IMG/VR virus record: IMGVR_UViG_3300037225_001188
Span: 32,001-96,000 of that record
Length of the DNA stretch: 64,000 nt
Direction: 5' to 3' (one strand)
Origin: a virus
In this document: piece after piece, positions 18,949-61,161 of the stretch
Layout: the number at the start of each line of letters is the position of its first letter
How positions within the stretch are numbered: position 1 is the stretch's first letter
Translations under genes and position numbers: made by a program
The notes under the pieces: model-generated
Databases searched by the model: none
What the model saw: the letters and a program-made list of their open reading frames with translations, nothing else
Told to the model about the DNA's origin: nothing

Positions 18949-19739
18949 CTGACACCCGAAGAGATACAGTAGAAGAGATCATGAAGACGATGTAAGAGTT
19001 CCGCGGCTGGCGCCGCGGCGTGTACCTCTCGGACCTTCGGAGTCCTGGAGGTTCTTCTCGAACCCGCCCAGCGAAGCCGAAGGCTTTGGTCACAGCCTCC
19101 AGTTCGCGTTGACGTTCTCGAGCGCGTTTTCCATCGTCGGCTCGTCCAGGTCGATGATGATGTGCCGCTTCGGGTTACGCTTCACGAAGCCCTCGATGCT
19201 CCGGACGTGGTGGTATCCGGGCTCGCTGCGCACGTCGTCGCAGTAGCGTTCGGTCAGCTCCTCACGCTTCTCCTCGTTCGGCTCCTTCGCCCACACGATG
19301 TAGGAGTAGGCCGGCTCGAGGTAGAAGGTCGGGGTGATCTCGCAGCAGAACGTCTCCTCTCGGTAGTCGTAGACGTAGACCTGCTCGATGCGGCGGATGT
19401 ACTGCTTGTCGCCGAGCTGGAAACTGTAGTCCTGGGTCTCGTCGAAGAGGACGGCGTGGAACTCGGGCACGATGTCTTGGCGCGGCTGGTTCATGGGCAT
19501 CTTGATCTCCAGTTTCTCCAGGCTTCACTTGCCGGGGTAGGTTGCGACTGCTCCGAACACGGCTAACCCCAATGCCGCCAGGTAGACGGCGATGGCGACC
19601 AGCTCCTTCCACGACGGGCGCGTCACTCGGTCACCCGCAGTCGCTCGTCCCAACAGCACTCGTCGCCGATCAGCTTTCCTTGGTGACGATGGGCGTTTGA
19701 CTTCAGGACGATGTGCCCGCAGAGACTGCACTCTATGGT

Positions 19740-20147
19740 CTACCCCTTCAGCTTGCGCAGGCGCACGTAGAGCGACGGCCCGCCGGTGTACCCGAACCAC
19801 ATCTGCCCATGCACGTCGCGCACCCGGACGTAGTACCAGTGGTTCGTGAGGCACCCGCGCTTCACCCAGGCGTTCTCCACCTCGTGGCGGTGGGTGACCT
19901 CACCGAGCTTGCCACCGCTCCAGGTGGTGACGAGCCACTGGCCCATCTCCGCTCCCTTGATGTACGCGAAGAAGCGCTTCTCCGTGAGCAGGTCGACTAC
20001 CTGCCGTTTGTCCCCGCACTCCCAGCAGATCTCCTCGACCGTGCCGTCGGGCATTGGGTGGTGCACCGTCCCCGTGGTGTGCTCGCCATGCTTGCTGGGC
20101 TTGTGCCCGCAGTCCAAGGTGCAGCGGTCTCTCTCTGCTACCGTCAT
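19740..20147 (-). CDS. Hypothetical protein starting at the IS left junction
   Basis: MTVAERDRCTLDCGH... Confidence 0.65.
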   Translation of the reverse strand: MTVAERDRCTLDCGHKPSKHGEHTTGTVHHPMPDGTVEEICWECGDKRQVVDLLTEKRFFAYIKGAEMGQWLVTTWSGGKLGEVTHRHEVENAWVKRGCLTNHWYYVRVRDVHGQMWFGYTGGPSLYVRLRKLKG

Positions 20148-20210
20148 TGGTTCTTCGGCGCGGAGACTGCCTGCTTTAGCTGGCAGAGGAAGCGCCGCTC
20201 CTGTTGTTGG

Positions 20211-20239
20211 TTGACTTGCTTTGGTTGGACGACTATACT
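20211..20239 (+). promoter_or_regulatory. Sigma70 promoter for leaderless tnpB
   Basis: TTGACT-N17-TATACT, 7 nt before the ATG. Confidence 0.75.
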
Positions 20240-20246
20240 CCAAGAC

Positions 20247-21386
20247 ATGAAGTTGGTCGCGGTCGCGAAGCTGCTCCCCACCGACGAACAGGCGACGGCT
20301 CTGCTTGCCACCATGGAGCGCGTCAACGAAGCCTGCGAGTGGCTCGGGGCGCGTGCCTTCGAGGGGCAGACCGCTAACAAGTTCGCCCTTCACCATCTCC
20401 ACTACGGTGACCTCCGGGAGCAGTTCGGGTTGTCGGCCCAGATGGCAGTCAGGGCCATTGGCAAGGTCTGCGACGCCTACAAGCGCGACCGGACGCGGCA
20501 GCCCCACTTCAAGCCCCACGGCGCCATCGCCTACGACCAGCGCATCATGAGCTTCAAGGCCATGGACCGGGTATCGCTCCTGACGCTTGCCGGACGCATC
20601 CTCGTTCCGTTCGTCGCCGGGGCCTACCACCGCGCCCGGCTCGAAGGCGTCCGTGGTCAGGCCGACCTCGTGCTCCGCAAGGGAAAGTGGTACCTCTACG
20701 TGACCGTCGAAGTTCCCGACGGCGCACCAGTTGACCCCGAGGGATGGCTGGGCGTGGACCTCGGCATCCGCAACCTTGCCACCGACTCCGATGGCGAGCG
20801 GCACAGCGGGGCCGGCGTGGAGGCGGTGCGTCAGCGCATGCAGCAGCTCCGCACCGCGCTTCAGTCCGTCGGCACGAAGAGCGCCAAGCGCCACCTCAAG
20901 CGACTCGCGGGGCACGAGGCCCGCTTCCGTTCCGACGTGAACCACATCATCTCGAAGCGCATCGTTGCCAAGGCCAAAGACACCGCGCGCTGGGTCGCAG
21001 TCGAGGATCTGACCCACATTCGCGAGCGGACCACGGTTCGACACGGCCAACGGGCGATGCACTCCGGGTGGGCTTTCTTCCAGCTCCGGTCGTTCTTGAC
21101 GTACAAGGGCAGGCTCGCTGGCGTGCCGGTTGTCGCCGTCGACCCGCGCAACACCTCGCGCACCTGCCCCCGTTGCGGTCACGTCGACAAGCGCAACCGA
21201 CGCACGCAGGCTGAGTTCCGCTGCGTCGCTTGCGCCTTTGAGGCGCACGCCGATGTAGTGGGAGCGACCAACATTGCAGCACGGGCCGCCTTCAACCGGC
21301 CCATCGTCTCGAGTATTGGGAGTGAAACGCACCTTGCGATACCTCTCCTAGCTCAGGGGCAAGCCGCCAGCTTCAGCGGGCGGTAG
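20247..21386 (+). CDS. tnpB: RNA-guided endonuclease TnpB
   Basis: RuvC D (GVDLG), E (VEDL) and D (HADVVGATNI) intact; CPRC/CVAC zinc finger. Confidence 0.95.
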   Translation: MKLVAVAKLLPTDEQATALLATMERVNEACEWLGARAFEGQTANKFALHHLHYGDLREQFGLSAQMAVRAIGKVCDAYKRDRTRQPHFKPHGAIAYDQRIMSFKAMDRVSLLTLAGRILVPFVAGAYHRARLEGVRGQADLVLRKGKWYLYVTVEVPDGAPVDPEGWLGVDLGIRNLATDSDGERHSGAGVEAVRQRMQQLRTALQSVGTKSAKRHLKRLAGHEARFRSDVNHIISKRIVAKAKDTARWVAVEDLTHIRERTTVRHGQRAMHSGWAFFQLRSFLTYKGRLAGVPVVAVDPRNTSRTCPRCGHVDKRNRRTQAEFRCVACAFEAHADVVGATNIAARAAFNRPIVSSIGSETHLAIPLLAQGQAASFSGR

Positions 21387-22794
21387 TTGACGCTGCCTCC
21401 AGGTTGATGACGGGGGCCACGGGGTCGTCCCCCTCGGCCACGTCGCGGACCATCGTGATGCTCGTGGCGATGGGCACCAGCGATGCCAAGCTCCCGACGT
21501 CGCGCCCGACGCCGACGCAGAACCATGACACACCCTCGGTCTTGGTGAGGTTCGTCGCCGCCTTGATGGCCGTGTCGTTGAGCAAGTCTTCGCCATCCGT
21601 GATGACCACGACGTCGGCCTTCTTCATGGCCCGGCTGGTCCGCACCAGCTCGCACGCCCGCAGGACCGGGGCGTTGAAGTCGGTGCCGCCCTCGCAGCGG
21701 TGGTCGAGGGCGTCGCTGAGGTCCTTCGGCGTGGCTCGCCCGGCCTCGATGCCGATCTCGCGGACGATGTCCCCGTTGAAGGCGACGAGGTGGAAGGACC
21801 GCCGCTGCTTGGTCGCCGTGCTAAGGAGGGCGAGCGCGACCGCCTTGCTCCAGACGTCCTTGCCGTCTTCGCGCATGGAGCTGGACTCGTCCAGCAGGAC
21901 CACGACCGGGCCGCGGGTCTCCGTCTCCCGTCCGCTCATCTCGTAAGTGAGGGCCCGCCCCTCCATGAGCTTGGCGAAGAGGGCGAGCTTGAGACGCGGG
22001 TGACGCAGGGCCACCAGCTCCGATGGCAGGAGCCGGGCGAGGTCGCTGCCCATGCCCACGCCGTGGACCTCACCCACGCCGGGCTTGACCTTGGAGCGGG
22101 CCTTGGCCGCGGCCACCCGTTCCAGCCGTCCGGCCAGCTCGGCGATGCGCTTGAGGCGGGGCGAGTCGCGGAGGCAGCGGTGCGCTTCGCGGACCGCCCG
22201 CATGTTCGCCGGGCCGGTGTTCTTCGCGACCGCGGTTCCTGGGGAGCTGATGCCGAGCGGCGTCTCCACGCCCTCCATCTCGGCCTCGGCCTCCTGCACC
22301 TGGGCGGCCGCCTGGCGCGCGGCCTTGCGAATGGTGGCGCGCAGGTCGGCGTCGGACGCCTGGCCTTGGCCTGAGCCGCCGCCCTGGCCGGGCTGAGGCT
22401 GCTCGCCGCTCTGGCCTCCCGGTTGCTGCTCCTGGCCCGGCTGTCCCTCGTCCTTCGGGGCGTCGGGCACGTGCGGGAGCAGGCTCTCCAGCATGCACTC
22501 GGTCGCGATGCCAGCGGCGAAGCCGTTGCGGGCGCACATGACGCGGAGCCGGCCCCACTCGGCCAGCTCCCCCGCCATCTCGTGCAGCTTGGTCGCCCAC
22601 TCGGGGGCGTTGTCCAGGGCCTGCGGCTCGCCTTGAAGATACAACCTGGCGTGAAGGTCGGCAGGGAACCCGGCGAACGCCGGGCCTTGCTTGCCGATGC
22701 CCGCGGTCACGAGGTCGGCCGCGGGCTGGGAGGTGGCGATGTGCTCTGACCAGAGGCGGTCGAGCCACTTGCCGGTCTTGTAGCAGAGGCCCAT
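21373..22794 (-). CDS. VWA-domain protein (ViaA/CoxE-like)
   Basis: MIDAS DESSS, GGTDF, ITDG; DLARLLPSEL. Confidence 0.9.
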   Translation of the reverse strand: MGLCYKTGKWLDRLWSEHIATSQPAADLVTAGIGKQGPAFAGFPADLHARLYLQGEPQALDNAPEWATKLHEMAGELAEWGRLRVMCARNGFAAGIATECMLESLLPHVPDAPKDEGQPGQEQQPGGQSGEQPQPGQGGGSGQGQASDADLRATIRKAARQAAAQVQEAEAEMEGVETPLGISSPGTAVAKNTGPANMRAVREAHRCLRDSPRLKRIAELAGRLERVAAAKARSKVKPGVGEVHGVGMGSDLARLLPSELVALRHPRLKLALFAKLMEGRALTYEMSGRETETRGPVVVLLDESSSMREDGKDVWSKAVALALLSTATKQRRSFHLVAFNGDIVREIGIEAGRATPKDLSDALDHRCEGGTDFNAPVLRACELVRTSRAMKKADVVVITDGEDLLNDTAIKAATNLTKTEGVSWFCVGVGRDVGSLASLVPIATSITMVRDVAEGDDPVAPVINLEAASTTAR

Positions 22795-23359
22795 GCTGGT
22801 TCTCCTCAGACGTACAACAGGAGCTTGTAGGCTCCGGTCGCGCACGCCTCATTATAGGTCTTGATGAACTCCTCAGTGCAGCCGTGCTTCCGCATGTGGC
22901 TGACGGTGCTCTCGATGAACCTGGCGCGGGCAGCGTATTCCCCAATCGGGCAGTGCAGCAGGAACTCGCATGCATCCTTGTGGGCGAACGTGGCGTACTC
23001 CATGCAGTACTGCCAGTTGATGTTATCGTCCTCGAACAGGTCGCTAGCCTCGACCTCGGCGATGACGTGGAAGCGCATGGTCTACCCCTTTTTGTTCTTG
23101 GTCTGGTTGTCGTACCGCGGGTCGCCCTTGATCTTGCTCGGCCAGTCGTGGCCGTTGTGGCAGCAGACCAGCGGGAGCTTCGTCTCCGAGTCGAGGTCCG
23201 TCATCTGTCCGTTCCAACAGACCTCAGTCTCTCCGTCCCACTCCACGTCGTTGCCGCCGGTAGGACAGCCGTCGAACAGAGCGATGCCTGGGATGGTGTC
23301 GCAGGTCCCGATGGCGGGCTCGCCGCACGTCGGGCAGATCGGTTTGCTGAGCTTCATGG

Positions 23360-24505
23360 CTATGCCACGCTTCCCGGCGCCATGTGCAGCCGCGAGAGGG
23401 ACTGGAGGGCGAGCTGCGAGAGCGCTCGGTGCCAGGTCTGCACTTTCTGCAGCGCCGCCTTGGCGCGGGCCGTCTTCTTCTCCGGGACGCCGGCGATCTT
23501 CGTCTCGAGGCGCGAGTGGATGTCGCCGAGCTGCCGGAGCAGCGGCTCGAGCGCCTGGGTGAGCTGCGGGTTGTCGATGGTCGGGCGCTGGTCGTAGAGG
23601 TCCTTCGCCGCGTCCTCCAGCTCGACAGCCTCCAGGTTGAGCGGGTTGGCGACCTTCGCCACGACGCGCTCGACGACGCGGATCTGCGCGGGCTCGGTCC
23701 ACAGGGAGTGGACGAGGACCTCGCAGTGGTCGGCGCTGGTCTCCGTTTCGCCGTCGAGGAAAGCCTTGGCGCGGAGGAGCTTGCCGCACGCCTTCCAGCG
23801 GCGGTCGCTGGCGCTGACGCCTTCCTCTTCGAGCCCGTGCTTGATGTTGATGAGCCCATCCACCGTGTCGTCGGTGAGCGGCGTCATCGCCACGAGGCGC
23901 TGCGCCTCGGCCAGCTCGACGAGGGAGACGGTGGCGTTGACCGAGGTGGCGTTGCAGCGGAGCAGCATCTTGAGGCTGTCGTCATCGGCGAGCGGCTGGA
24001 CCACGAGGCGCACGAGGAAGCGGTCGTACATGGCGCCGAGGCTGGCGTCCTCGGGCAGCTCGTTCGAGGCTCCGACCATGGAGAGCAGCTTCGCGGGCAC
24101 CGCCGCCCCCGCCTCGTGGTAGACGCGCTCGTTCATCAGGCTGAGCATGGAGTTCAGGATGGCCGAATTCGCCTTCATGCATTCGTCGACGAAAACGAGA
24201 TGCGCGTCGACGATGCTGCCCTTGATGATGCGCTTGTACTCGTCGTGCTCCAGGGCGCTGAGGCTGAGCGGCCCGAAGAGTTCCTCGGGGGTAGAGAAGC
24301 GGGTGAGCAGCCGCTCGAAGTAGGTGGCGCCCGTGATGCGCTCGCACACGGAGCGCACGAGCATCGACTTCGCGGTCCCGGGAGGGCCGAGGAGCAGCAG
24401 GTGCTCCCGGGTGAGGAGCGCGAGGAGCGCGGCCTCGACGGCGGTCTCACGCTCGAGCAGGTTCGCGTTGAGGTCCTGGGCGAGAGCGATGATCTTCTGG
24501 TGCAT
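23360..24505 (-). CDS. MoxR-family AAA+ ATPase (RavA-like)
   Basis: GPPGTAKS, FVDECMKANSAILN, ASNELP, DRF, SDRRW. Confidence 0.92.
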   Translation of the reverse strand: MHQKIIALAQDLNANLLERETAVEAALLALLTREHLLLLGPPGTAKSMLVRSVCERITGATYFERLLTRFSTPEELFGPLSLSALEHDEYKRIIKGSIVDAHLVFVDECMKANSAILNSMLSLMNERVYHEAGAAVPAKLLSMVGASNELPEDASLGAMYDRFLVRLVVQPLADDDSLKMLLRCNATSVNATVSLVELAEAQRLVAMTPLTDDTVDGLINIKHGLEEEGVSASDRRWKACGKLLRAKAFLDGETETSADHCEVLVHSLWTEPAQIRVVERVVAKVANPLNLEAVELEDAAKDLYDQRPTIDNPQLTQALEPLLRQLGDIHSRLETKIAGVPEKKTARAKAALQKVQTWHRALSQLALQSLSRLHMAPGSVA

Positions 24506-26195: not shown

Positions 26196-26786
26196 CTACG
26201 CCTCCATCAGCAGTTGCGATAGGCACGCGAGGGCGGAATCCATGAATGCAGCCCTCGCCACAGCCCACGCCGCAGCCCCCGCCGCAGCCCCCGCCGCAGC
26301 CGACGCCGCAGCCCCCGCCGCATCCCACGCCGCAGCCCCCGCCGCAGCCCCCGCCGCAGCCCCCGCCGCAGCCCCCGCCGCATCCCACGCCGCATCCCAC
26401 GCCGCAGCCGACGCCGCATCCGACGCCGCATCCCACGCCGCAGCCCCCGCCGACGCCGCATCCCACGCCGCATCCGCCATCTCCTCTTGGCTCACGCTCT
26501 CCGGGTCCTCGACGCACCGCCGCACGACCGCGAGGCACTGCGCCACGCGCGGATCGGTGCTTAGGTGCGCAACCTGCTCCGCGCACCAGAGCGCGTACGC
26601 CCGCTGGGACCCCGGCCCTTCGTCGGACAGGACGTGCCAGAGCCACCACGAGTCTAGCCCCTCAGCGGCGAGGTCGAACAGCGTCTCCACCGTCGGCTCG
26701 CAGCCGGCGGGATAGAGGTTCTTGAAGGCGTCGCGCTGCCCCTCGCAGGCGCCGTGCTTCACGAGCAGGTCGTAGGTGATCTTCAT
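26196..26786 (-). CDS. Protein with AAWDAA/AAGAA low-complexity repeats
   Basis: LLVKHGACE N-terminus; mosaic 12-nt repeat tract at about 26260-26475. Confidence 0.75.
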   Translation of the reverse strand: MKITYDLLVKHGACEGQRDAFKNLYPAGCEPTVETLFDLAAEGLDSWWLWHVLSDEGPGSQRAYALWCAEQVAHLSTDPRVAQCLAVVRRCVEDPESVSQEEMADAAWDAASAGAAAWDAASDAASAAAWDAAWDAAGAAAGAAAGAAAGAAAWDAAGAAASAAAGAAAGAAAWAVARAAFMDSALACLSQLLMEA

Positions 26787-35959: not shown

Positions 35960-38190
35960 AAATAGGTTGGCGGTTATAAACCGGTGGCACGTCCACCCTG
36001 GATTGCTAGGGCATAAAGTACAGGGGTAGTACGGTATATCTCAGGACACACTACTCCCTTGGGGGGTGGCCCTGCTAGGTACATGGTACTAGGTACATGG
36101 TACTACGGCCTATATGTAGGCACACTACTCCCTACATGGTAGGCTAGTCTCTGGCCCGTCTGCTCTGCAAGGTTGACGGTGCCGTCTCTACACGCGCGGG
36201 AGTACTCTAGGGGAGTACTCTACCGCGCCAGCTTGAATCGCGCGTCATCAAACCGCGCGAAGTGCGCGCGATTGCTCATTTGGTGCCGCACTCGCCTTTG
36301 AGGCTAGCCCCTGACTGGTGAATCCCAGTCTAAGCGTGCGGCAGACACCTTAGCCTCGCGTTGTGTGACCCTCTGCTAGCGCACAACCATGCCTAGCTAT
36401 CTCCAGCCTACATGGGGTAGCTACACTCCCACAAAGCCTGCTAGACTCGCTGCACGCGGCACGTTCGAGTCACCCAACGTTCGCTCAAGTGTCTTACCAC
36501 GGTATCGCCTAGCTACCCGTGGCCCCTTCCCTCACTCGCCCGGTACGCTACCTCTGGGAGTGTTCTCGCCTCGAAAGGCTCGACTCCGACGATAGACCGG
36601 TTAAGGGGAAGGTGGCGATTCAATTGTCATAGAACGTCGGTTTGCGATGCTCCGAAGCTACGCTGCTAGCGTGCCACATCGTACCCTCACACTAAGACGC
36701 CTCGACCATGTGCTACAGGCTATCTCCTGGCTTATACTCCAGGGTGCTCAGGTATCGGCTGTCACTAGCCCGACTCCTCCGGTATGTCGCTGCCTCTGTC
36801 CCTTCCACGCGCTTATCGCTTGTGGACCTGAGGCACCGTTTACCTAGCTAGGTGGTGGTTTCCTTTCCCCACGTGCGATAAGCGCCAGTGGTAGTCGCGT
36901 ATGCTCTACCGCGTACGAATGCTGCGCGGTATGTCGCGTTTTTCACGCTACCGGGGGCCATGTGGCGCCCATGGTAACCGTCGAGATAGCCTTGCTCAGC
37001 CGCGCGATATCCTGGCATGTAGGGGCCAGAATCGTCGGGGCGGCGGATGAGCTGCGCTTGATGCTTAGCTCGCATCCTCTTCTGCACCATGACTGGATTG
37101 GCCATGGTTTACGCTCCGAATCTACGGCTAGCCGTGCGCACTATGCGACGGCTTGAGTAACTACCGTGTAACCCGTGGTTAACGTCTAGCGGGCTGGCAT
37201 TGCCGCGTGCTGCGTGGGCGTAGTCTGCAAGCCAATGCCGCGTGACCTTACGGCCCGTCCGGCACTTCCCACCGAGCAAGGCGCCAGCTACTAGCGCGAT
37301 GATGACGAGGAGTGCCATGCTAGGTGTCCCCAAGGATACGCGCAACGGCATCGGCAACCGTGGGTGCCCACACCGCGTGACCAGCGTGGTAGGCTTCCAC
37401 GATACCGGAGTCGAGGCGCATAAAGGTCCAATCTTCCGCAGTATCGGCAGCGAGCTTGGACGCTATGGCGTGGCGCGCGGAAGCCAGGGGGCTTTGCTCT
37501 GCCGTGTGTGCCGTCGCGTTAACCATGCCAGGGAAGCATTGCAACGTCAGGGCCAGGAAAGTGTGACTGCGATATCATGAGCTTGCGCGGTTTAGGTGAG
37601 GTCCAGACTCCCACCATTGACGGCCGGCGCGAGAGTGAGGCGCGAGAGATATTAAGGCGTTGCGCGATCTACATTGGAAGCATGGGGATAAATCCCCATA
37701 GGCAAGGCATTGGGACGACTGCGGTTTGCGGAGCGATAGGAACCATCGCAGGGAAGGGTGGGGGAGAAGACCCCACCTATAGTCATTTCCGCCATACGTT
37801 GCAATACGTTCTGATATGTAAAGCCTACCTACATGTACCCCTTTACATATGGTGTCTTGAGCCCCCAATTGACACGCGCATTGTACACCATACCTACATG
37901 TACCCCTTTACATATGGGGGCGCCAGCCCCCATCTACTAACCGATGGTCATGTGACCTGTGCCTGTTAACCGTCGGTCGTATCCTATCGACCGGAGTGAT
38001 ACGGGTGCAACGTCGTGATATTACTAGCGTGCGCTCATGTACTCCCTACTGTATGCCGTGCTACCGTACCCTTACAGACGCTCCGTCCTACCAGCTGGGG
38101 CCTAGAGGCTACTTGATCATGCTCGCGCGCACAGAATAGTTTTCAAACTACGTTCCAAGTTTCACGCCTCCTTCAAATCTTCCCTCGTAC
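35960..38190. other. Lower-GC, repeat-rich divergence region (control region, origin or genome end)
   Basis: Gene orientation flips here; few credible ORFs; CTAG-rich; short direct repeats. Confidence 0.6.
37826..37917. repeat. 27-bp direct repeat pair
   Basis: TACCTACATGTACCCCTTTACATATGG at 37826-37852 and 37891-37917. Confidence 0.9.
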
Positions 38191-40281: not shown

Positions 40282-40425
40282 TCGTCTGTGACCACTGCCG
40301 GCAGAGCGTGCTCGCCAGGCGCCGGGTCGTCTGCCCGCACTGCGACGCCGACCTGTGCGAGGGCTGCTACGACTCGCACCGCTGCCACGGGCGCGAGGAC
40401 GCCTGCCGCTGCCGAGAGGAGAGTC

Positions 40426-41694
40426 ATGCTCCAGACCGACCTGCTTGACCGCATCGCCGCAACCACTAAGAAGAACGAGAAGCTCGCGCTCCTGAAACAG
40501 GTCGAGGGGGAGACCCGCGAGCTGCTGCGTCTGGCGCTCGATCCGATGGTCACCTTCGGGCTCACCGTCGCCGAGTGCACGAAGCATGGCTGGAGCGGCG
40601 ACCCGCAGGAGGTCCAGCATGAGCTGCTCCAGGAGGCGGAGTGGTGGCCGGTCCTGACCGACCTGGCCTCCAGGCTGGCGTCGCGCAGCTTGACCGGCAA
40701 CGAGGCGAAGGAGGCGGTCCACGTCGTTTGCCAGTCGGCGCCGAACGCCGCGGCCGCGTTGTGGGCGTCGCGGATGCTCAACAAGGATCTCCGCGCCGGG
40801 GTCGCCGGCGGCATCGTCCTCGACGCCATCCCCGACCTCTACGAGGAGTTCGAGGTCTGGTTGGCGAAGCCGTACGAAGACCAAGAGCTGCCAGAGACAG
40901 CAGTGCTTGAACGCAAGCTTGATGGGTTACGCATGGTAGTGATGGGAGGCAAAGCCTTCACGAGAAATGGGCACGTCATCTCATCAGTCGATCCGATAAT
41001 CGAGCAACTACCAGATCAAGTTCGTAATAAATTCGTAACCGACGGTGAGATCGTTGGAGCCGAGTTCGATGATACTTCCGGTCAGGTGCGACAAAAGAAA
41101 GGACGAGCATCTGAATCGCTCGTGTACAATGTCTTTGATCTTATCTCCTTGCAAGAGTGGAAATCGCGAGACACAGCTATTCTTCTAGAGCGGAAAGAAA
41201 TGATGACCGAGTTGCTCATCCCATATCAAACTGAGAATATCGGCGTTGTTCCGTGGGACATTGTCAAGAATATAACAATTGAAGTAGCTATCGCTAAACG
41301 CGATAATTACTTGAGCCTCGGGTACGAAGGCGTAATGATCAAGGACGCATCGAGTCAGTACGTGTGGGGGCGTAACAACTCGATGATGAAACTCAAGAAG
41401 ATGGACAACCTCGATGGCATCGTCGTCGGCACATATGAAGGGAAGAAGGGTAAGACTAAAGGCAAGCTCGGAGGTCTGAGCGTAAGACATTCTGGCAAGA
41501 TCAAAGGCGGTCTCGAAGTCGAAGCCGTGACCGATGTCGGTAGTGGATTCACTGACAAGCAACGTGTTGAATTGTGGGCAATGCGTGAGCAGCTTGTCGG
41601 TTGGTGTGTCGAGATTCAATTTCAGAACTTCACGTCAAAAGAAGGAAGAATGCGCTTCCCGGTCTATCTTGGAAGGCGTCCAGATAAAGAATGA
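40426..41694 (+). CDS. ATP-dependent DNA ligase (phage type)
   Basis: ERKLDGLR (motif I), DGEI, FDL, YEGVMIK, MKLK, VGSGFTD, RFPVY. Confidence 0.95.
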   Translation: MLQTDLLDRIAATTKKNEKLALLKQVEGETRELLRLALDPMVTFGLTVAECTKHGWSGDPQEVQHELLQEAEWWPVLTDLASRLASRSLTGNEAKEAVHVVCQSAPNAAAALWASRMLNKDLRAGVAGGIVLDAIPDLYEEFEVWLAKPYEDQELPETAVLERKLDGLRMVVMGGKAFTRNGHVISSVDPIIEQLPDQVRNKFVTDGEIVGAEFDDTSGQVRQKKGRASESLVYNVFDLISLQEWKSRDTAILLERKEMMTELLIPYQTENIGVVPWDIVKNITIEVAIAKRDNYLSLGYEGVMIKDASSQYVWGRNNSMMKLKKMDNLDGIVVGTYEGKKGKTKGKLGGLSVRHSGKIKGGLEVEAVTDVGSGFTDKQRVELWAMREQLVGWCVEIQFQNFTSKEGRMRFPVYLGRRPDKE

Positions 41695-41699
41695 GACTT

Positions 41700-41771
41700 G
41701 GCTCGGCGGGGCTCGGTTAGGCGGGGCTTGGCGCTGCAAGGCAAGCTACGGCTCGGCGTTCCACGGCAAGG
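41700..41771 (+). ncRNA. Phased GGY-NN pentamer array, candidate guide RNA of the adjacent RAMP protein
   Basis: GGCtc GGCgg GGCtc GGTta GGCgg GGCtt GGCgc TGCaa GGCaa GCTac GGCtc GGCgt TCCac GGCaa GG; 11 of 14 units begin with GGY. Confidence 0.8.
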
Positions 41772-41808
41772 GATTCATTTAGTTAGTAGAACGCCAGAAA
41801 GATAATCA

Positions 41809-42384
41809 ATGCTGATCACGATAGAGATCAAGGGTCGCACTCCACTGTTGATGAACCGCTTCGGCGAGGTTCCTGAAGTCGCCACGACCAGCGGGCATGC
41901 TCCGGTTATGACGTCTTCGTCAGAGCGTGGCACTCCACGTACTCAGGCGGAGAAGGCCGCGTACCGCGACGCGAAGACCGGAGAGCTGTTCATCCCAGGA
42001 CCGAACGTCCTCTCGTGCCTTGTCGAGGCCGGGAAGTTCACGAAGGCTGGGAAGACGAAGCTCACGACCCAGAAGTCGACGCTCGTCACCGCCGGTTTGA
42101 TGCTGAACGAGGTCGCGCTCCCGCTCCACGTCAGCGAGTTCGAGGTCGACTCGCGCGGGGTCGTCATCCCGGCTACCGGGGGGCGCGTCATTCGTCATCG
42201 TCCGCGGCTCGACGAGTGGAGTTTGACGTTCTCGCTAGACGTCGACGAGACGATGTTCTCCGAGTCGTTGGTCAGGACGCTCGTCGACGATGCCGGGAAG
42301 AAGATCGGGCTCGGAGACTATCGTCCATCTCGCAAGGGTCCGTTCGGCAGGTTCGACGTGGTAGGATGGAAGGTCGAGAAGTAA
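41809..42384 (+). CDS. Stand-alone Cas7/RAMP-superfamily RNA-binding protein
   Basis: ITIEIKGRTPLLMN (first strand plus TP), LFIPGPNVLSCL (RAMP IPG motif), C-terminal G-rich loop GLGDYRPSRKGPFGRF. Confidence 0.8.
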   Translation: MLITIEIKGRTPLLMNRFGEVPEVATTSGHAPVMTSSSERGTPRTQAEKAAYRDAKTGELFIPGPNVLSCLVEAGKFTKAGKTKLTTQKSTLVTAGLMLNEVALPLHVSEFEVDSRGVVIPATGGRVIRHRPRLDEWSLTFSLDVDETMFSESLVRTLVDDAGKKIGLGDYRPSRKGPFGRFDVVGWKVEK

Positions 42385-42627
42385 CATGCCGCGAGGGCCG
42401 TACGAACACGACAGCCTGACCTTCGCCCCGGACCGGCAACTCGAGTGTCGGGGGTACGGCAAGTGCCTCGACGTCGCGCTCAGCAGCGGTTGGGTGTCGT
42501 GGTGTTGCACCGGGTGCACGAAGTTCGTCGAGCTGACGGCCGAGGAGAAGACCAGCGACATGATCGCCCTGCTCCACATCCTCGGGGAGCTGGAGTTCCC
42601 GCTCGGCATCAAGAAGAGGCACGACCC

Positions 42628-43260
42628 GTGAGGCCGGATCGCTACGACGGCGACCCCGACCTCGACCGCCTTGAGCGCACCGTCGCCGGGCTCGACGGCG
42701 TCGTCGAGATGGCGGTCACGGCCGCTCGCGAGAAGATCGGTGAGCCGACGTGCGCCGGGTGCCGGAGCCCGGGGTGCTGCTACCAGCGCGTGTCGGTGAC
42801 GCTGGCGGAGGCCCTGCCGATCGCGCGCCGGCTCATCAGCCGCGGGTTCGACTCCCCCGGGGTGCGGCGGCGGCTCGCCGGCGAGGGTGAGGAGATGTCG
42901 TCGCGCACGCCAGAGGAGTGGTGGGCGCTGTCGAGGCCGTGCTTCTTCCTCGGCGAGGGGCGGTGCTCTATCTACGACGTGCGCCCGGTGGCGTGCCGCG
43001 CTCGCTTCTCGTGGAGCGACCCGGAGTTGTGCCAGCCGCCGGCCGTCAGCGACGTCGTGACCGTCGACATGGTCGGCGCCGCCCGAGCCGTGGTGCAGCT
43101 CAACCTCGAGCTGTGCCGCGGCCTCGGCCTGAATGACGTCGTCACCTACGCCGGCGCCATGCCGCGGATGGTGGCGGTCGCGCTCGAGGCGCTCAGCAGA
43201 GACACCGCCGCTGCCGTCGAGTACCTATGGGGGCTGGAGTTTCCGATCGCGGGCCGCTGA
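42628..43260 (+). CDS. YkgJ/FliB-family cysteine-cluster protein
   Basis: CAGCRSPGCC ... PCFFLGEGRCSIYDVRPVACR. Confidence 0.85.
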   Translation: MRPDRYDGDPDLDRLERTVAGLDGVVEMAVTAAREKIGEPTCAGCRSPGCCYQRVSVTLAEALPIARRLISRGFDSPGVRRRLAGEGEEMSSRTPEEWWALSRPCFFLGEGRCSIYDVRPVACRARFSWSDPELCQPPAVSDVVTVDMVGAARAVVQLNLELCRGLGLNDVVTYAGAMPRMVAVALEALSRDTAAAVEYLWGLEFPIAGR

Positions 43261-47231: not shown

Positions 47232-48797
47232 ATGAAGACCAAGAAGCCGATCATCTACACGCTCACCGACGCCCACCGTAAGCGCCTTAAGCCGTGGGCC
47301 GACCAGTGGATCGCTAACGCCCTGTCGACCAAGCCGATGGACGACGCCGAGCGCGAGATCGTACGCAAGGCCGTCGCCGGGCTCTACGACGCTGCGAAGC
47401 TGCCGCAGCCGAAGGCCGTCGTGTTCTCGCGCGGTCCGATCTCGGGCGCCATCGCGGCTGGAGTCGCGGCGGGCGTGTGGCACCTGCGGAAGCACCCGGA
47501 AATCCACGCGAGCCTGTTCGGCCGCAGCGTGACCGAGCGCGAGATCACGGCGGCCATCGGTCCGGCGTGTGCGCGCGCGACGCTCGCGGCTATGCGCGGG
47601 ATGGCGAATGGACCGCCAGTTCAGCCTGCGCTGAAGGCGGAGAAGCCTCAGAAGCGCGCCGCCACCGACGCCGCCACCCGCGCCGCCACCGACGACGCCA
47701 CCCGCGCCGCCACCTACGCCGCCACCACCGCCGCCACCGCCGCCGCCACCGACGACGCCACCCGCACCGCCACCCGCGCCGCCACCCGCGCCGCCACCTA
47801 CGCCGCCACCTACGCCGCCACCGACGACGCCACCCGCGCCGCCACCGACGACGCCACCGACGCCGCCACCCGCGCCGCCACCGCCGCCGCCGCCGACGAC
47901 GCCACCCGCACCGCCACCGACGCCGCCACCCGCGCCGCCACCCGCGCCGCCACCGACGACGCCACCGCCGCCGCCACCCGCACCGCCACCGACGCCGCCA
48001 CCGCCGCCGCCACCTACGACGCCACCGCCGCCACCGCCGCCGCCACCGCCGCCGCCACCGCCGATCTGGCTCCGGTGGTCAAGTTCCTCGTCCTCTGCTG
48101 CGGCTACAACTGGCGCATGCGAAACGGTGGCAACCAGTGGTCCGGGTGGGTCGCGTTCCTGTCGTTCTTCCGCCACGTCGCGAAGCTCCCGCTCGACTAC
48201 GCCAAGTTCGACCACTACGAGCAGACGGCGCAGCACAGCGGTCCGCGCTTCACACACGCCGACTTCTGCCTCGTCTGCGACCGCCCGACGGTGCTCACGC
48301 TCGACAGCAATCACCGACCTCACGGCGAGTGCGGGCCGTCGCACCGCTGGGCCGACGGCTGGGCGCTCTACTACTGGCATGGCACGCAGGTCCCCGCGAA
48401 GCTAGTCGAGACGCCTGAGTCCTACACGGCGGCCGACATCGCGGCCGAGACGAACAGCGAGATCGTGCGCGCCCTCGCCGAGCGGCTGGGGTGGGAGGCG
48501 TTCGTCAAGCGGCTCGACGTGCAGACCATCAACTCGTGGACCGACCCGACGACCGGCCTCGCCTACGAGCTGCTGGAGAGCCGCACGCGCATCGGCGACG
48601 GCCAGCCGCGCTTCCTGCGGATGACCTCGCCCACCCTCAAGGACGGCTCGCAGCCGCAATACGTCGAGCCGGTCCACCCCGACCTCGCGACTGCGCAGGC
48701 GGCGCGACGCTGGCAGGGCGTCGACCACGACGGCAGTCGGCCAAGCGTCGCGGACTGCAACGCGCACCCCGAGTGCGCCTACGAAATGGAGGCGTAG
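47232..48797 (+). CDS. DUF6745-like protein with AAT(D/R/Y/A) repeat tract
   Basis: VCDRPTVL..HRPHGECGP..WADGWALYYWHGTQVP, NSEIVRA; repeats at 47657-48063. Confidence 0.8.
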   Translation: MKTKKPIIYTLTDAHRKRLKPWADQWIANALSTKPMDDAEREIVRKAVAGLYDAAKLPQPKAVVFSRGPISGAIAAGVAAGVWHLRKHPEIHASLFGRSVTEREITAAIGPACARATLAAMRGMANGPPVQPALKAEKPQKRAATDAATRAATDDATRAATYAATTAATAAATDDATRTATRAATRAATYAATYAATDDATRAATDDATDAATRAATAAAADDATRTATDAATRAATRAATDDATAAATRTATDAATAAATYDATAATAAATAAATADLAPVVKFLVLCCGYNWRMRNGGNQWSGWVAFLSFFRHVAKLPLDYAKFDHYEQTAQHSGPRFTHADFCLVCDRPTVLTLDSNHRPHGECGPSHRWADGWALYYWHGTQVPAKLVETPESYTAADIAAETNSEIVRALAERLGWEAFVKRLDVQTINSWTDPTTGLAYELLESRTRIGDGQPRFLRMTSPTLKDGSQPQYVEPVHPDLATAQAARRWQGVDHDGSRPSVADCNAHPECAYEMEA

Positions 48798-58254: not shown

Positions 58255-61161
58255 CTATTTGCTCAGCAGTTGCAGCCGCGCGAAGATGGCCCGCGCAGCG
58301 TTGGCGCCCGCGGTGTCTGCGCCTACGGCCACGGGGGTACAGTCCGCGGCGCCCGGTGTCCACGCGGCGCCCGCGTAGGACCCAATGACCGCGGCCCCGT
58401 CCTTGACGACGAGACTGCCCGTCGCAGCGTTCCACTGCACCTTGAGCGTGTGTCCCAGGTTGTCGAGGGTGCCGCACATGATGGCCGCGCCGCCGATGAG
58501 CGCGGGCGTGTTATCCCAGTTCCGCACTCGCAGGTTCGCCGCAGACATGAACAGCGGCGCCAGTTGCAGGTTGCCGGCGTAGTCAATGATGAGTGCTCCC
58601 GGCGCGCCCTCGGCACCCAGGGAGAGCAGGACAGGACGGGTGGAGTAGACCGTGACGGTGTTGCTACCGTAGTTCGCGATCCACGCCTGACCGAGCGCGT
58701 CGATGGCGACACTAAAGGGGTTGACGCCCGTCGCGTAGGTGCCAACGAGGACCTTCGTCGCGACGTTGTAGACCGTGACGGTGCCGCCGCCGTAGTTCGT
58801 GATCCACGCCTGACCGAGCGCGTCGATGGCGACACCATAGGGGCCGGTGCCCGTCGCGTAGGTGCCAACGACCGCCTTCGTCGCAACGTTGTAGACCGTG
58901 ACGGTGCTGGCGCCGTAGTTTGCGATCCACGCCTGACCGAGCGCGTCGATGGCGACACCAAAGGGGTTGGCGCCCGTCGCGTAGGTGCCAACGAGGGCCT
59001 TCGTCGCAACGTTGTAGACCGTGACGGTGTTGGCGCTGTAGTTCGTGATCCACGCCTGACCGAGCGCGTCGATGGCGACATCTCTCGGGTTGGCGCCCGT
59101 CGCGTAGGTGCCAACGAGGACCTTCGTCGCGACGTTGTAGACCGTGACGGTGCTGCTACCGTAGTTCACGATCCACGCCTGCCCGAGCGCGTCGATGGCG
59201 ACACCAACAGGGTTGGCGCCCGTCGCGTAGGTGCCAACGAGGGCCTTCGTCGCGACGTTGTAGACCGTGACGGTGCCGCCGCCGTAGTTCGTGATCCACG
59301 CCTGACCGAGCGCGTCGATGGCGACACCATAGGGGTTGACGCCCGTCGCGTAGGTGCCAACGACCGCCTTCGTCGCAACGTTGTAGACCGTGACGGTGCC
59401 GCCGCCGTAGTTCGCGATCCACGCCTGACCGAGCGCGTCGATGGCGACACCAAAGGGGTTGGCGCCCGTCGCGAATGGGCTCCCCGCCACTGCCACCGGA
59501 GCGCACCCGGCTGGGTTGACGAACCCCGCCAGCGACAACGTGAGCGAGCCCTTGGCCGGGGTGTAGCGCGCGTTCCCGACGTTGGTGCACTGCTCGCTCG
59601 GGATGCTCGTGCTCACCGCCGCCCCGGCCGCAGTCGCACGGTACGCCAGCGGCGGAACCGCGGTGCCCGTCATCGCCCACGCCTCGGAGAACACCACGGT
59701 CCCCGTCGCGGCGCCGATCTGCGGGTAGCAGCGCATGACCGCGCTCGTCTGGCCGGCGTGCGCGCACTGCGCCGACCCGTACCAAGTAGGGCACTTGCCG
59801 TCGGCGTCGGGGTAGGTGGACTCGGCGACGGGCACGGTGCCAGTGAGGGTCTTGCAGATGATCTCCTCGGCGCCTCCGCCGCTGCCAGACAGGTACAGGC
59901 TCACCGTGGCGTTCGTGTCGGCCGCGCCGCGTCGTGCGAGGACGCCAGCGGCGAACGAATCGCCGATGTGAGTGCTGAGCCCGGTCGCCGTGCCCGACGA
60001 AGCATAGCCGCCGTTGGACGTGGAGGCGACCTGCACAGCGTCACGCATGCCCGACGGGCCGTCGGCGGCGGTGAGGGTGGCGTTCGTTCCGGTCCAACCG
60101 GGCAGGTTCGCCGAGTTGATCCCAAGGAACGCCATGCCCACGTTGAGCACCTCGCCAGTGAGCAGGGCGTTCGCAGCATCCACCGGCAGGCTCGGGTGGT
60201 AGGCGAATGGCACCTGCCCCGCGCCGAAGCCGCCGATGCGGTTGCCGGGCACCGCGACGCGGATCGGGTTGGTCCGCGCGTAGGTGTTGGTCACGCCTGC
60301 GAGCCCGGCGGCGAGCGCGTGACGCCAGAAGGCAGCACCGTCGGCCGCGGTGAGTGCGGCGTTCAGGACGTAGCACACCGCGATCTGCCCGGCGAAACTG
60401 CTGGCCGTGTAGCCGAGGCTGCAATGTCCGGCGTTGGTCACGCTGCCGGTATAGGCCGCACTCGTCGCCGAGCCGAGGTCGGAGAACAGACTGACCACTT
60501 TGCCCGTATCGTCGAGAGTGAGGATGAACCAGTGCCATGCTCCATCACGCGGATCGACGGCGATCGAGGCCCGCTGCGTGGTCCCGCTGCCCGCGGCCGT
60601 GGCCCGCAGGTAGGTCGAGGAGCACGAGAGCGTCCAGCCGTGCGTGCCGTCCCACTTCGAGGCGATCCACGTCTCGGTGGCAGCAGCGCCCGGTCGGATG
60701 CGGAATGCCCCATGAACGGTGACGATGCTGCCGTTGGCGTTGCCGAAAGCCGTACCCGCGTCGGCGTAGTATTGCGCTCCGCCGAGTAGCTCAATCGCCA
60801 GCTTCGCCGCGAAGGAACTGCCCCCCGCCAGCGCCACGGCGACCCGGCTGTCCAGCGCCAACGTCTGCGCGAGGTTCGGACCGAGCGCGAGACTGTCGAT
60901 CTGAGCACCGATGTTGGCGCACAGATACGCAGCCTGGACATTGGCCGCTATCGCGGCCGTCCCGGGCATGGCCGCGAGGTATGCCGCCGCCGTCGCCGGG
61001 AACGGCTGCACCATGCCCGCGATCCCCGGCGTGAGCCCGAGCAGGGAGTTGCTGCGCGCGTCGAGCTGCGCCAGCACCTGCGCCGGGGCCGCGATGAGCC
61101 CGCCCCCGCGCCCGTGCAGCGCGAGGCCGGACCCGCCGAGCCCGGGAGCCCCGAGTGCCAT
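58255..61161 (-). CDS. Tail/receptor-binding protein with a LamG-like region and a 7-bladed beta-propeller
   Basis: DGAWHWFILT..FAGQI (LamG-like); seven 40-aa NPxGVAIDALGQAWI repeats. Confidence 0.75.
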   Translation of the reverse strand: MALGAPGLGGSGLALHGRGGGLIAAPAQVLAQLDARSNSLLGLTPGIAGMVQPFPATAAAYLAAMPGTAAIAANVQAAYLCANIGAQIDSLALGPNLAQTLALDSRVAVALAGGSSFAAKLAIELLGGAQYYADAGTAFGNANGSIVTVHGAFRIRPGAAATETWIASKWDGTHGWTLSCSSTYLRATAAGSGTTQRASIAVDPRDGAWHWFILTLDDTGKVVSLFSDLGSATSAAYTGSVTNAGHCSLGYTASSFAGQIAVCYVLNAALTAADGAAFWRHALAAGLAGVTNTYARTNPIRVAVPGNRIGGFGAGQVPFAYHPSLPVDAANALLTGEVLNVGMAFLGINSANLPGWTGTNATLTAADGPSGMRDAVQVASTSNGGYASSGTATGLSTHIGDSFAAGVLARRGAADTNATVSLYLSGSGGGAEEIICKTLTGTVPVAESTYPDADGKCPTWYGSAQCAHAGQTSAVMRCYPQIGAATGTVVFSEAWAMTGTAVPPLAYRATAAGAAVSTSIPSEQCTNVGNARYTPAKGSLTLSLAGFVNPAGCAPVAVAGSPFATGANPFGVAIDALGQAWIANYGGGTVTVYNVATKAVVGTYATGVNPYGVAIDALGQAWITNYGGGTVTVYNVATKALVGTYATGANPVGVAIDALGQAWIVNYGSSTVTVYNVATKVLVGTYATGANPRDVAIDALGQAWITNYSANTVTVYNVATKALVGTYATGANPFGVAIDALGQAWIANYGASTVTVYNVATKAVVGTYATGTGPYGVAIDALGQAWITNYGGGTVTVYNVATKVLVGTYATGVNPFSVAIDALGQAWIANYGSNTVTVYSTRPVLLSLGAEGAPGALIIDYAGNLQLAPLFMSAANLRVRNWDNTPALIGGAAIMCGTLDNLGHTLKVQWNAATGSLVVKDGAAVIGSYAGAAWTPGAADCTPVAVGADTAGANAARAIFARLQLLSK
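58645..59472 (-). repeat. Seven near-identical 120-bp tandem repeats
   Basis: Direct inspection. Confidence 0.95.

Follow-up and report, generated by a model that had tools for sequence, protein, structure and literature searches.

The locus described here is most probably (roughly 87% by our estimate) a minimal VIPR system of an uncultivated peat phage with a genome of about 131 kb, consisting of one vrRNA in the leader and the vipr gene. VIPR (Viral Interference Programmable Repeat) systems combine Vipr, a RAMP protein of about 20 kDa, with vrRNAs that are composed of 9-16 YNNGG repeats and an invariant tail (bioRxiv 10.64898/2026.04.26.720920). According to this preprint, the NN pairs recognize the target DNA while one base per unit is skipped, and the carriers are mostly phages and prophages without CRISPR arrays. 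A first interpretation made without database searches (the sequence-only reading) had presented the gene as an orphan and the locus as a candidate non-CRISPR RNA-guided system, in which RAMP protomers polymerize on the GGY-NN RNA and display NN as a non-contiguous guide, and had pointed to a resemblance to phage VIPR-type systems. This interpretation is supported: VIPR is the subject of three preprints (bioRxiv 10.64898/2026.04.26.720920, 10.64898/2026.04.26.720927 and 10.64898/2026.10.15.759431), and the protein encoded at the locus is homologous to the Vipr protein of phage SUSP1. The locus is neither orphan nor new because it is a member of a family described in 2026. It combines the VIPR features that can be tested computationally, namely a Vipr homolog, a RAMP fold, the guanine-contact residues, an array on the same strand, linkage between array and gene, a viral context devoid of CRISPR, and the absence of a self-target. 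From homology we infer expression and processing of the vrRNA, RNP formation, a DNA target and silencing.

The locus lies in virus record IMGVR_UViG_3300037225_001188 (130,793 nt; CheckV completeness 100%), of which bases 32001-96000 were analyzed; this stretch of 64,000 nt is referred to as the window and provides the coordinates given below. The public runs in which the stretch occurs are peat metagenomes. Fragments that are at least 99% identical are found in contigs from four peat runs, and the array is invariant among them. The GC content of the whole genome is 0.666, and the ligase (0.569) and vipr (0.615) genes are below this average. Both belong to a rightward gene block that starts past a region near 36 kb in which the strand switches and the GC content is low. 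Family scans gave no match for most ORFs of the window. The following elements make up the locus and its immediate surroundings:

40288-41694, + strand: ATP-dependent DNA ligase ORF (Pfam DNA_ligase_A_M, E 8.7e-13; phrog_114, E 3.6e-88).
41700-41769, + strand: vrRNA repeat tract of 14 GGYNN pentamers (sequence and in-phase scan).
41770-41795, + strand: putative AT-rich 3' tail of the vrRNA (motif common to the vrRNA ends of relatives).
41809-42384, + strand: vipr gene encoding the 191-aa Vipr, a minimal RAMP with a predicted Cas7/Csm3-like fold (homology and predicted fold).
42386-42631, + strand: Cys-rich ORF of 81 aa, beginning 2 nt past the vipr stop codon (candidate accessory gene by position alone).

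The repeat tract begins 5 nt past the ligase stop codon (41694) and ends about 40 nt (39-40) ahead of the vipr ATG at 41809. From position 41700, the + strand reads GGCTC GGCGG GGCTC GGTTA GGCGG GGCTT GGCGC TGCAA GGCAA GCTAC GGCTC GGCGT TCCAC GGCAA GG. GGY is present in 11 of the 14 in-phase pentamers, the degenerate units being 8 (TGC), 10 (GCT) and 13 (TCC), and the number of units falls inside the published range of 9-16. The predicted guide is formed by the dinucleotides TC GG TC TA GG TT GC AA AA AC TC GT AC AA. The 14 in-phase pentamers, the 11 GGY triplets, the order of the dinucleotides and the terminal GGCAAGG had all been noticed in the sequence-only reading and are present exactly. 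When in-phase GGY was counted over 14 pentamers at each position and on both strands of the 64-kb window, the array obtained the top score of 11; scores of at least 7 elsewhere arose only from shifted frames of the array itself, and the remaining window did not exceed 6. The array is far beyond chance and the observation is confirmed. A second array is absent from both strands of the whole 130,793-nt genome (at least 6 of 8 units). Tandem Repeats Finder did not list the array at a minimum score of 40, as expected because two of the five positions vary.

The 191-aa ORF has one sequence match in the PDB, the 'SUSP1 Vipr protein' (36pp_D; phmmer E 3.5e-7), with a single-sequence alignment that spans residues 45-184. 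A profile built from 75 diverse homologs matches the same chain with an E-value of 4.5e-22 across profile positions 1-186 and chain residues 1-189. In PHROGs, the ORF falls over its full length into phrog_4652 (E 9.9e-21), which has no function assigned there, and it gave no match in Pfam, NCBIfam or PADLOC. The Vipr family is large, with 1,580 matches among 90%-identity clusters and 2,988 representatives at 50% identity. Furthermore, tblastn against GenBank phages returned 124 records, mostly from Escherichia and Salmonella phages including those named Felixounavirus, and also from Gordonia and Pseudomonas phages. The relatives in Felixounavirus phages are about 24% identical to the protein.

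RAMP hallmarks had been suspected in the ORF from its translation, and the motifs in question are present: strand 1 plus TP (KGRTPLL), IPG (FIPGPN) and a C-terminal G-rich loop (GLGDYRPSRKGPFGRF). Structure prediction is in agreement with this assignment. The AlphaFold2 model of the protein (pLDDT 93.9, pTM 0.88) yielded, among the Foldseek matches listed, Cas7-type subunits (Csm3 of type III-A, Cmr and type VII) with E-values from 4e-7 to 2e-5 and a probability of 1.0, and the best matches among solved structures were mostly Csm3 of type III-A complexes. Likewise, VIA-align against 48,161 chains placed Csm3, Cmr and Cas7 first (Z 11.5, 139-151 residues aligned). The fold-library searches did not return 36pp itself. 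Model and sequence together place a long hairpin at residues 112-134 (thumb) and the G-loop at 167-182. As modeled, the protein is a minimal RAMP with a single RRM core, a G-rich loop and a thumb.

The prominence of Csm3 and Cas7 among the solved structures could also be taken as a sign of a stray Cas7/Csm3 subunit from a CRISPR-Cas system, with the repeat tract next to it being unrelated. However, identity to the Csm3/Cas7 chains is 9-17%, and the direct sequence match is Vipr. The Pfam RAMP family PF03787 has no match in the genome and matches in 5 of 14 control genomes; Cas1 (PF01867) is likewise absent from the genome though found in control genomes, and CRISPR-like spaced repeats are missing genome-wide. 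Pfam searches of 84 ORFs in the window (11 + 73) revealed no cas gene and neither did PADLOC, which bears out the initial impression that the window holds neither a cas gene nor a CRISPR array. The one related Pfam match is a TnpB-like ORF at 19713-21386 with a Cas12f1-like_TNB domain. The interpretation as a stray Cas7 is refuted for practical purposes.

The VIPR protein and the Cas7 family of Class 1 CRISPR systems (Csm3, Cmr4, Cas7) share the RRM-core RAMP fold, the G-rich loop and the β-hairpin thumb and, judging by homology, probably also polymerization on a guide RNA whose bases are flipped out periodically. Unlike Class 1 systems, the locus has no repeat-spacer array, no Cas5, Cas6 or large subunit and no adaptation genes, and it is not a member of Class 1. 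The guides differ as well: the VIPR guide has a period of 5 nt with two read-out bases per unit and a target period of 3 nt, whereas the Cas7 guide has a period of 6 nt with five paired bases.

In the cryo-EM structure of the SUSP1 complex, there is one protomer per repeat and each GGY is jointly gripped by two adjacent protomers (10.64898/2026.04.26.720927). The sequence-only reading had assumed that each protomer binds one GGY; the ratio of one protomer per repeat holds in the published structure, and the assignment of each GGY to a single protomer does not. The preprint describes contacts of G1 with H17 and D177, of G2 with R138 and W178, and of Y3 with R179 and a narrow pocket (10.64898/2026.04.26.720927). 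The corresponding residues of the peat phage protein are R131 for R138, D170 for D177, Y171 for W178 (an aromatic replacement) and R172 for R179; H17 is replaced by N16 and differs. Four of the five GGY-contact residues (H17, R138, D177, W178, R179) are kept or conservatively replaced. In the family alignment, R131, R172 and P173 are at least 90% conserved and W137, G167, G177 and G180 are invariant. The residues of the SUSP1 pyrimidine pocket (E71, M72, C173, T175) correspond in the pairwise alignment to P65, N66, I166 and L168 and are not conserved. The alignment indicates conservation of the guanine-holding residues but not of the pyrimidine pocket, so that recognition of Y may differ from SUSP1. 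SUSP1 K33 lands in a variable stretch (residues 21-40, pLDDT 66-72), in which its position is not mappable.

If array and gene form one system, arrays should recur at other vipr loci, a check that the sequence-only reading had proposed. We surveyed 123 homologous loci, 80 from IMG/VR (found with a closer alignment of 30 sequences) and 43 from named genomes. Both strands were scanned for windows of eight pentamers with at least six in-phase GGY, and the flank was defined as 400 nt upstream or 500 nt downstream of vipr on the vipr strand. Flanking GGYNN arrays on the same strand are present at 64 of the 123 loci. In IMG/VR, 41 of 80 loci are positive, and the vipr strand carries 101 arrays in 70,461 nt of flank compared to 38 in the other 404,373 nt, many of the latter being continuations of long downstream series. 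In the named genomes, 23 of 43 loci are positive (41 arrays in 37,728 nt compared to 13 in 140,577 nt). The opposite strand is devoid of arrays with at least 6 of 8 units in 653 kb (474,834 nt from IMG/VR, the rest from the named genomes). After dereplication at 90% vipr nucleotide identity, 51 of 101 clusters are positive, 28 of them with an upstream array as in the peat phage. Relaxing the threshold to 5 of 8 units raises the number of positive clusters to 61, yet seven opposite-strand arrays then emerge. The remaining 59 loci are array-negative at the strict threshold, and degenerate arrays are visible by eye in, e.g., L002, L003, L006 and L008. The survey shows that the linkage of array and vipr is family-wide and strand-specific.

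The relatives among the named genomes are distributed over Myxococcota, Desulfovibrio, Geobacter, Planctomycetota, Mesorhizobium, CPR bacteria and archaea. In the 151 distinct arrays (2,057 units; median 12 units), the first three positions are G, G and Y at frequencies of.84,.95 and.95, values with some circularity, as the arrays were searched for by GGY. All four bases and all 16 dinucleotides occur at positions 4 and 5. Upstream arrays of the relatives stop 4-214 nt ahead of the start codon, mostly 12-48 nt, and the array in the window stops 40 nt ahead.

The location of the tract between the ligase stop and the vipr start is one where operators and attenuators also occur, and we found neither a sigma-70-like promoter upstream nor a terminator around the array (two terminator-like sites on the minus strand are at chance level). 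These features would suit a DNA-level array of binding sites, or a leader element controlling expression of vipr or the ligase, rather than a guide RNA gene. However, the arrays of relatives may precede vipr, follow it or form long multi-unit series, yet at the strict threshold they are always on the vipr strand (none on the opposite strand in 653 kb), and their NN positions are hypervariable. Moreover, in the relative L040, whose Vipr is 49% identical, the vrRNA is directly followed by a type II hammerhead ribozyme (Hammerhead_II, 76.3 bits). The fixed strand, the hypervariable dinucleotides and the L040 ribozyme thus indicate an RNA product. For SUSP1, the vrRNA and the RNP were demonstrated experimentally according to the preprint (10.64898/2026.04.26.720920). 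Hence, we regard a purely DNA-level role of the tract as very unlikely.

The region downstream of the array is a putative vrRNA tail. It is AT-rich, with a GC content of 0.36 across 41770-41808. The last repeat and the tail read GGCAAGGGATTCATTTAGTTAGT, which fits the motif GGC[AG]AGG(G)AT..TTTA[GT]T found at the vrRNA ends of relatives. Arrays of relatives often finish in GGCAA or GGCGA units, followed by GGAT, a few bases and TTTAGT or TTTATT, and in multi-guide series this motif sits between successive guides. Applied to all loci and the window, a regular expression of the motif, written post hoc, finds 25 sites on the vipr (+) strand and one on the opposite strand. In an alignment, about 20 nt are common to the tail in the window and nine tails of L020, L063, L069 and L077. 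The tail motif may characterize the clade to which the locus belongs. The leader folds with the stability of shuffled sequences (z 0.01), and Rfam gave no match at E ≤ 1 in 41500-42000, so that no ribozyme or RNA family was detected there.

Typical VIPR loci carry a vap accessory gene, whereas no conserved vap gene was recognized beside vipr in the window. The preprint distinguishes seven types with six vap genes and mentions some Vipr genes that stand alone (10.64898/2026.04.26.720920). The 81-aa Cys-rich ORF downstream of vipr has no match in Pfam, PHROGs, NCBIfam or PADLOC and no homolog beside vipr in the 123 loci. Both this ORF and the next one, which encodes a CxxCxxCC domain, are not conserved partners in related loci, and a role as vap is therefore not supported for either. 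Among the neighboring ORFs (36-47 kb), homologs in the 123 loci were found for a serine recombinase (3), a ParB-like ORF (1) and the ORF at 41877-42419 (4); the other ORFs with homologs in this comparison overlap vipr itself, either on the opposite strand or in a different frame. No neighboring ORF recurs beside vipr across the related loci, and the 123 loci themselves have no dominant accessory family.

Next, we consider what the guide might recognize. Targets were searched with a pattern in which each NN unit is followed by one free base (NNx), giving 14 units and a score out of 28. The preprint reports no self-targeting in VIPR systems (10.64898/2026.04.26.720920), and in the peat phage genome a self-target is absent as well, the best score of 19/28 lying within the 17-21 obtained with shuffled guides. 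The 123 vipr loci were also searched, as vipr-targeting has been described (10.64898/2026.10.15.759431), and gave a best score of 18/28 compared to 18-21 for the null. The full pattern of 14 units has no exact match in viral, metagenome or genome contigs.

Seeded scans, which require exact seeds of 8-9 consecutive units and are blind to scattered mismatches, gave no match in viral contigs for units 1-9 or 6-14. Units 4-11 gave 19 viral matches (best 21/28), and units 1-8 and 7-14 gave 11 and 35 matches, respectively (best 21/28). Units 3-11 matched 14 times in metagenome contigs, with the best score of 23/28 in L104; all other seeded matches reach at most 22/28. The match in L104 was rejected as a target, as it lies in a low-GC contig, contains an in-frame stop and extends at chance level. 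Four of the 14 matches of units 3-11 correspond to WVSYGFAKKTSKHP, a conserved peptide of a 496-aa ORF that may be TctA-like. These were likewise not accepted as targets and are judged a coincidence because the flanking guide units do not match. Given how sparsely the phages of peat and their hosts have been sampled, a missing target is expected.

The lack of a target in three public collections and the lack of a vap gene, together with GGY missing from three of the 14 units, raise the question whether the locus is a decaying or inactive VIPR remnant, whose guide no longer directs anything useful and which is drifting. A database entry, P0011, might point in the same direction: it shares residues 1-125 without a difference, whereupon a frameshift follows at the G6 run (42173-42178), so that a truncated allele or an assembly error exists elsewhere. 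However, no indel is seen at the G6 run in contigs of three other runs. In addition, the ORF in the window is intact and full-length with the key conserved residues kept, internal degeneracy is described as frequent in vrRNAs (10.64898/2026.04.26.720920), and a missing target is expected from the sparse sampling of peat phages and hosts. We therefore consider decay improbable and prefer the interpretation as a minimal VIPR system.

The closest characterized counterpart of this minimal VIPR system is the type II VIPR of Escherichia phage SUSP1 (PDB 36pp). In both cases, a phage without CRISPR or cas genes encodes a homologous Vipr of about 190-200 aa and a GGYNN guide with a unit count within 9-16, located immediately upstream of the vipr gene and on its strand. 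Both have the R, D, aromatic and R residues that contact the guanines, and both are without a self-target. In contrast to SUSP1, which has one upstream and three downstream vrRNAs and a vap1-like neighbor, the locus has a single vrRNA and no such neighbor, and the two Vipr proteins are distantly related. The tail of the SUSP1 clade has a pseudoknot, whereas the peat phage has a short AT-rich motif with no stable structure predicted. SUSP1 targets the recombinase of a satellite, and no target was found for the peat phage guide. Single-vrRNA and hammerhead-interspersed architectures are mentioned for types I, III and V (10.64898/2026.04.26.720920). The single vrRNA is shared with such loci; the ribozyme is not found in the window, and the relative L040 has one.

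Modeled on the published SUSP1 system, the locus might function as follows. The + strand would be transcribed through 41700 to about 41795, giving rise to a vrRNA of about 95 nt with 14 GGYNN repeats and a short AT-rich tail. Vipr protomers of 191 aa with the predicted RAMP fold would polymerize on this vrRNA, one per repeat. GGY would be sequestered by the thumb arginine R131 and by D170, Y171 and R172 of the G-loop, such that the NN pairs are displayed. The filament might then bind dsDNA reading TCnGGnTCnTAnGGnTTnGCnAAnAAnACnTCnGTnACnAA on either strand in keeping with the 1-nt-skip rule, and the skipped base would usually coincide with the wobble position of codons. The resulting gapped R-loop may prevent a gene of a competing mobile element from being transcribed. 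For SUSP1, the preprint describes silencing of an essential gene of a satellite and also the existence of solo vrRNAs (10.64898/2026.10.15.759431).

A more far-reaching interpretation is that the locus represents a vap-less, single-guide VIPR lineage, in which the vipr mRNA carries the guide within its 5' leader and the guide ends in a short unstructured AT-rich tail without a pseudoknot or ribozyme, and that the guide is aimed at the host chromosome for host takeover rather than at a mobile element. As the guide is without a match in any sampled virus, it could aim at the host chromosome. We consider this combination speculative and unlikely, though worth stating.

VIPR is a very recently described mode of RNA-guided DNA recognition, in which a non-contiguous guide is used by a filament of a RAMP protein of about 20 kDa, and an ancestral role with respect to CRISPR effectors has been proposed for it. 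The locus leaves the view given in the preprints unchanged. It provides a further clearly defined case, found in an uncultivated high-GC peat phage of 131 kb, with one guide, one protein and no accessory gene, and it illustrates that such a system is recognizable from raw sequence alone. The survey of 123 loci confirms the strand-specific linkage between array and vipr and points to a tail motif for the clade of the locus. The experiments described in the preprints concern types II, III and V only. With its single guide and single protein, the locus is a compact candidate to probe the published rules, i.e., the 1-nt skip and the absence of a PAM, beyond the enterobacterial type II systems.

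Within vipr, the gene of the 191-aa Cas7/Csm3-like protein, a G6 tract occupies window positions 42173-42178. The homologous database protein P0011 (138 aa, two member sequences, from an 8,153-nt contig) is identical to the Vipr protein of the window over residues 1-125 and then ends prematurely, following a -1 frameshift at this tract. The short form is due to misassembly or else is a genuine truncated allele; in contigs of three other runs, the G6 tract carries no indel.

Related vipr loci harbor further RNA elements. In the IMG/VR locus L040, a Hammerhead_II ribozyme (76.3 bits, 1264-1328) directly follows the vrRNA array (1191-1255), and a C4 antisense RNA (67.4 bits, 220-304) is located upstream of vipr. 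In a second related locus, L053, 47 uninterrupted GGYNN units (2742-2976) directly precede the vipr homolog. This is far above the 9-16 units of a single vrRNA (10.64898/2026.04.26.720920). The L053 run may be a staggered or multi-guide array, with no visible tails.

A search for guide targets returned the codons of the peptide SYGFAKKTS, which correspond to the middle nine units of the vrRNA guide, in the metagenome contigs L105, L107, L110 and L111. The peptide is part of WVSYGFAKKTSKHP, within a 496-aa, putatively TctA-like ORF (283 aa in L110, where it is cut at the locus end). Because the guide units flanking the middle nine do not match, we regard the match as coincidence.

The vipr block belongs to the rightward gene set that begins at a strand-switch region, which contains short tandem repeats at 36075-36222 and possibly has a regulatory or origin function. 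This region and other features of the window are as follows.

Features of the window
19713-21386, + strand: TnpB-like ORF (557 aa); domains Cas12f1-like_TNB (E 2.2e-21) and OrfB_IS605; matches to transposases in PHROG
21373-22845, - strand: VWA-domain protein, beside the MoxR-type ATPase gene
23360-24505, - strand: MoxR-type AAA+ ATPase (bpMoxR, E 2.8e-54)
26248-26452: long in-frame tandem repeat, 12 nt x17
35962-37241: strand-switch region (- strand genes left, + strand genes right), GC about 0.58, few ORFs
47657-48060: long in-frame tandem repeat, 12 nt x34
58645-59473: long in-frame tandem repeat, 123 nt x6.7, inside a 968-aa NHL-repeat protein (58255-61161)

The genes at 21373-24505 are a phage-encoded MoxR-VWA pair. 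The domain matches of the TnpB-like ORF are confined to residues ~179-527, and thus its real start may lie further in than annotated. This ORF appears to be an IS605-family element/TnpB-like RNA-guided nuclease carried by the phage.
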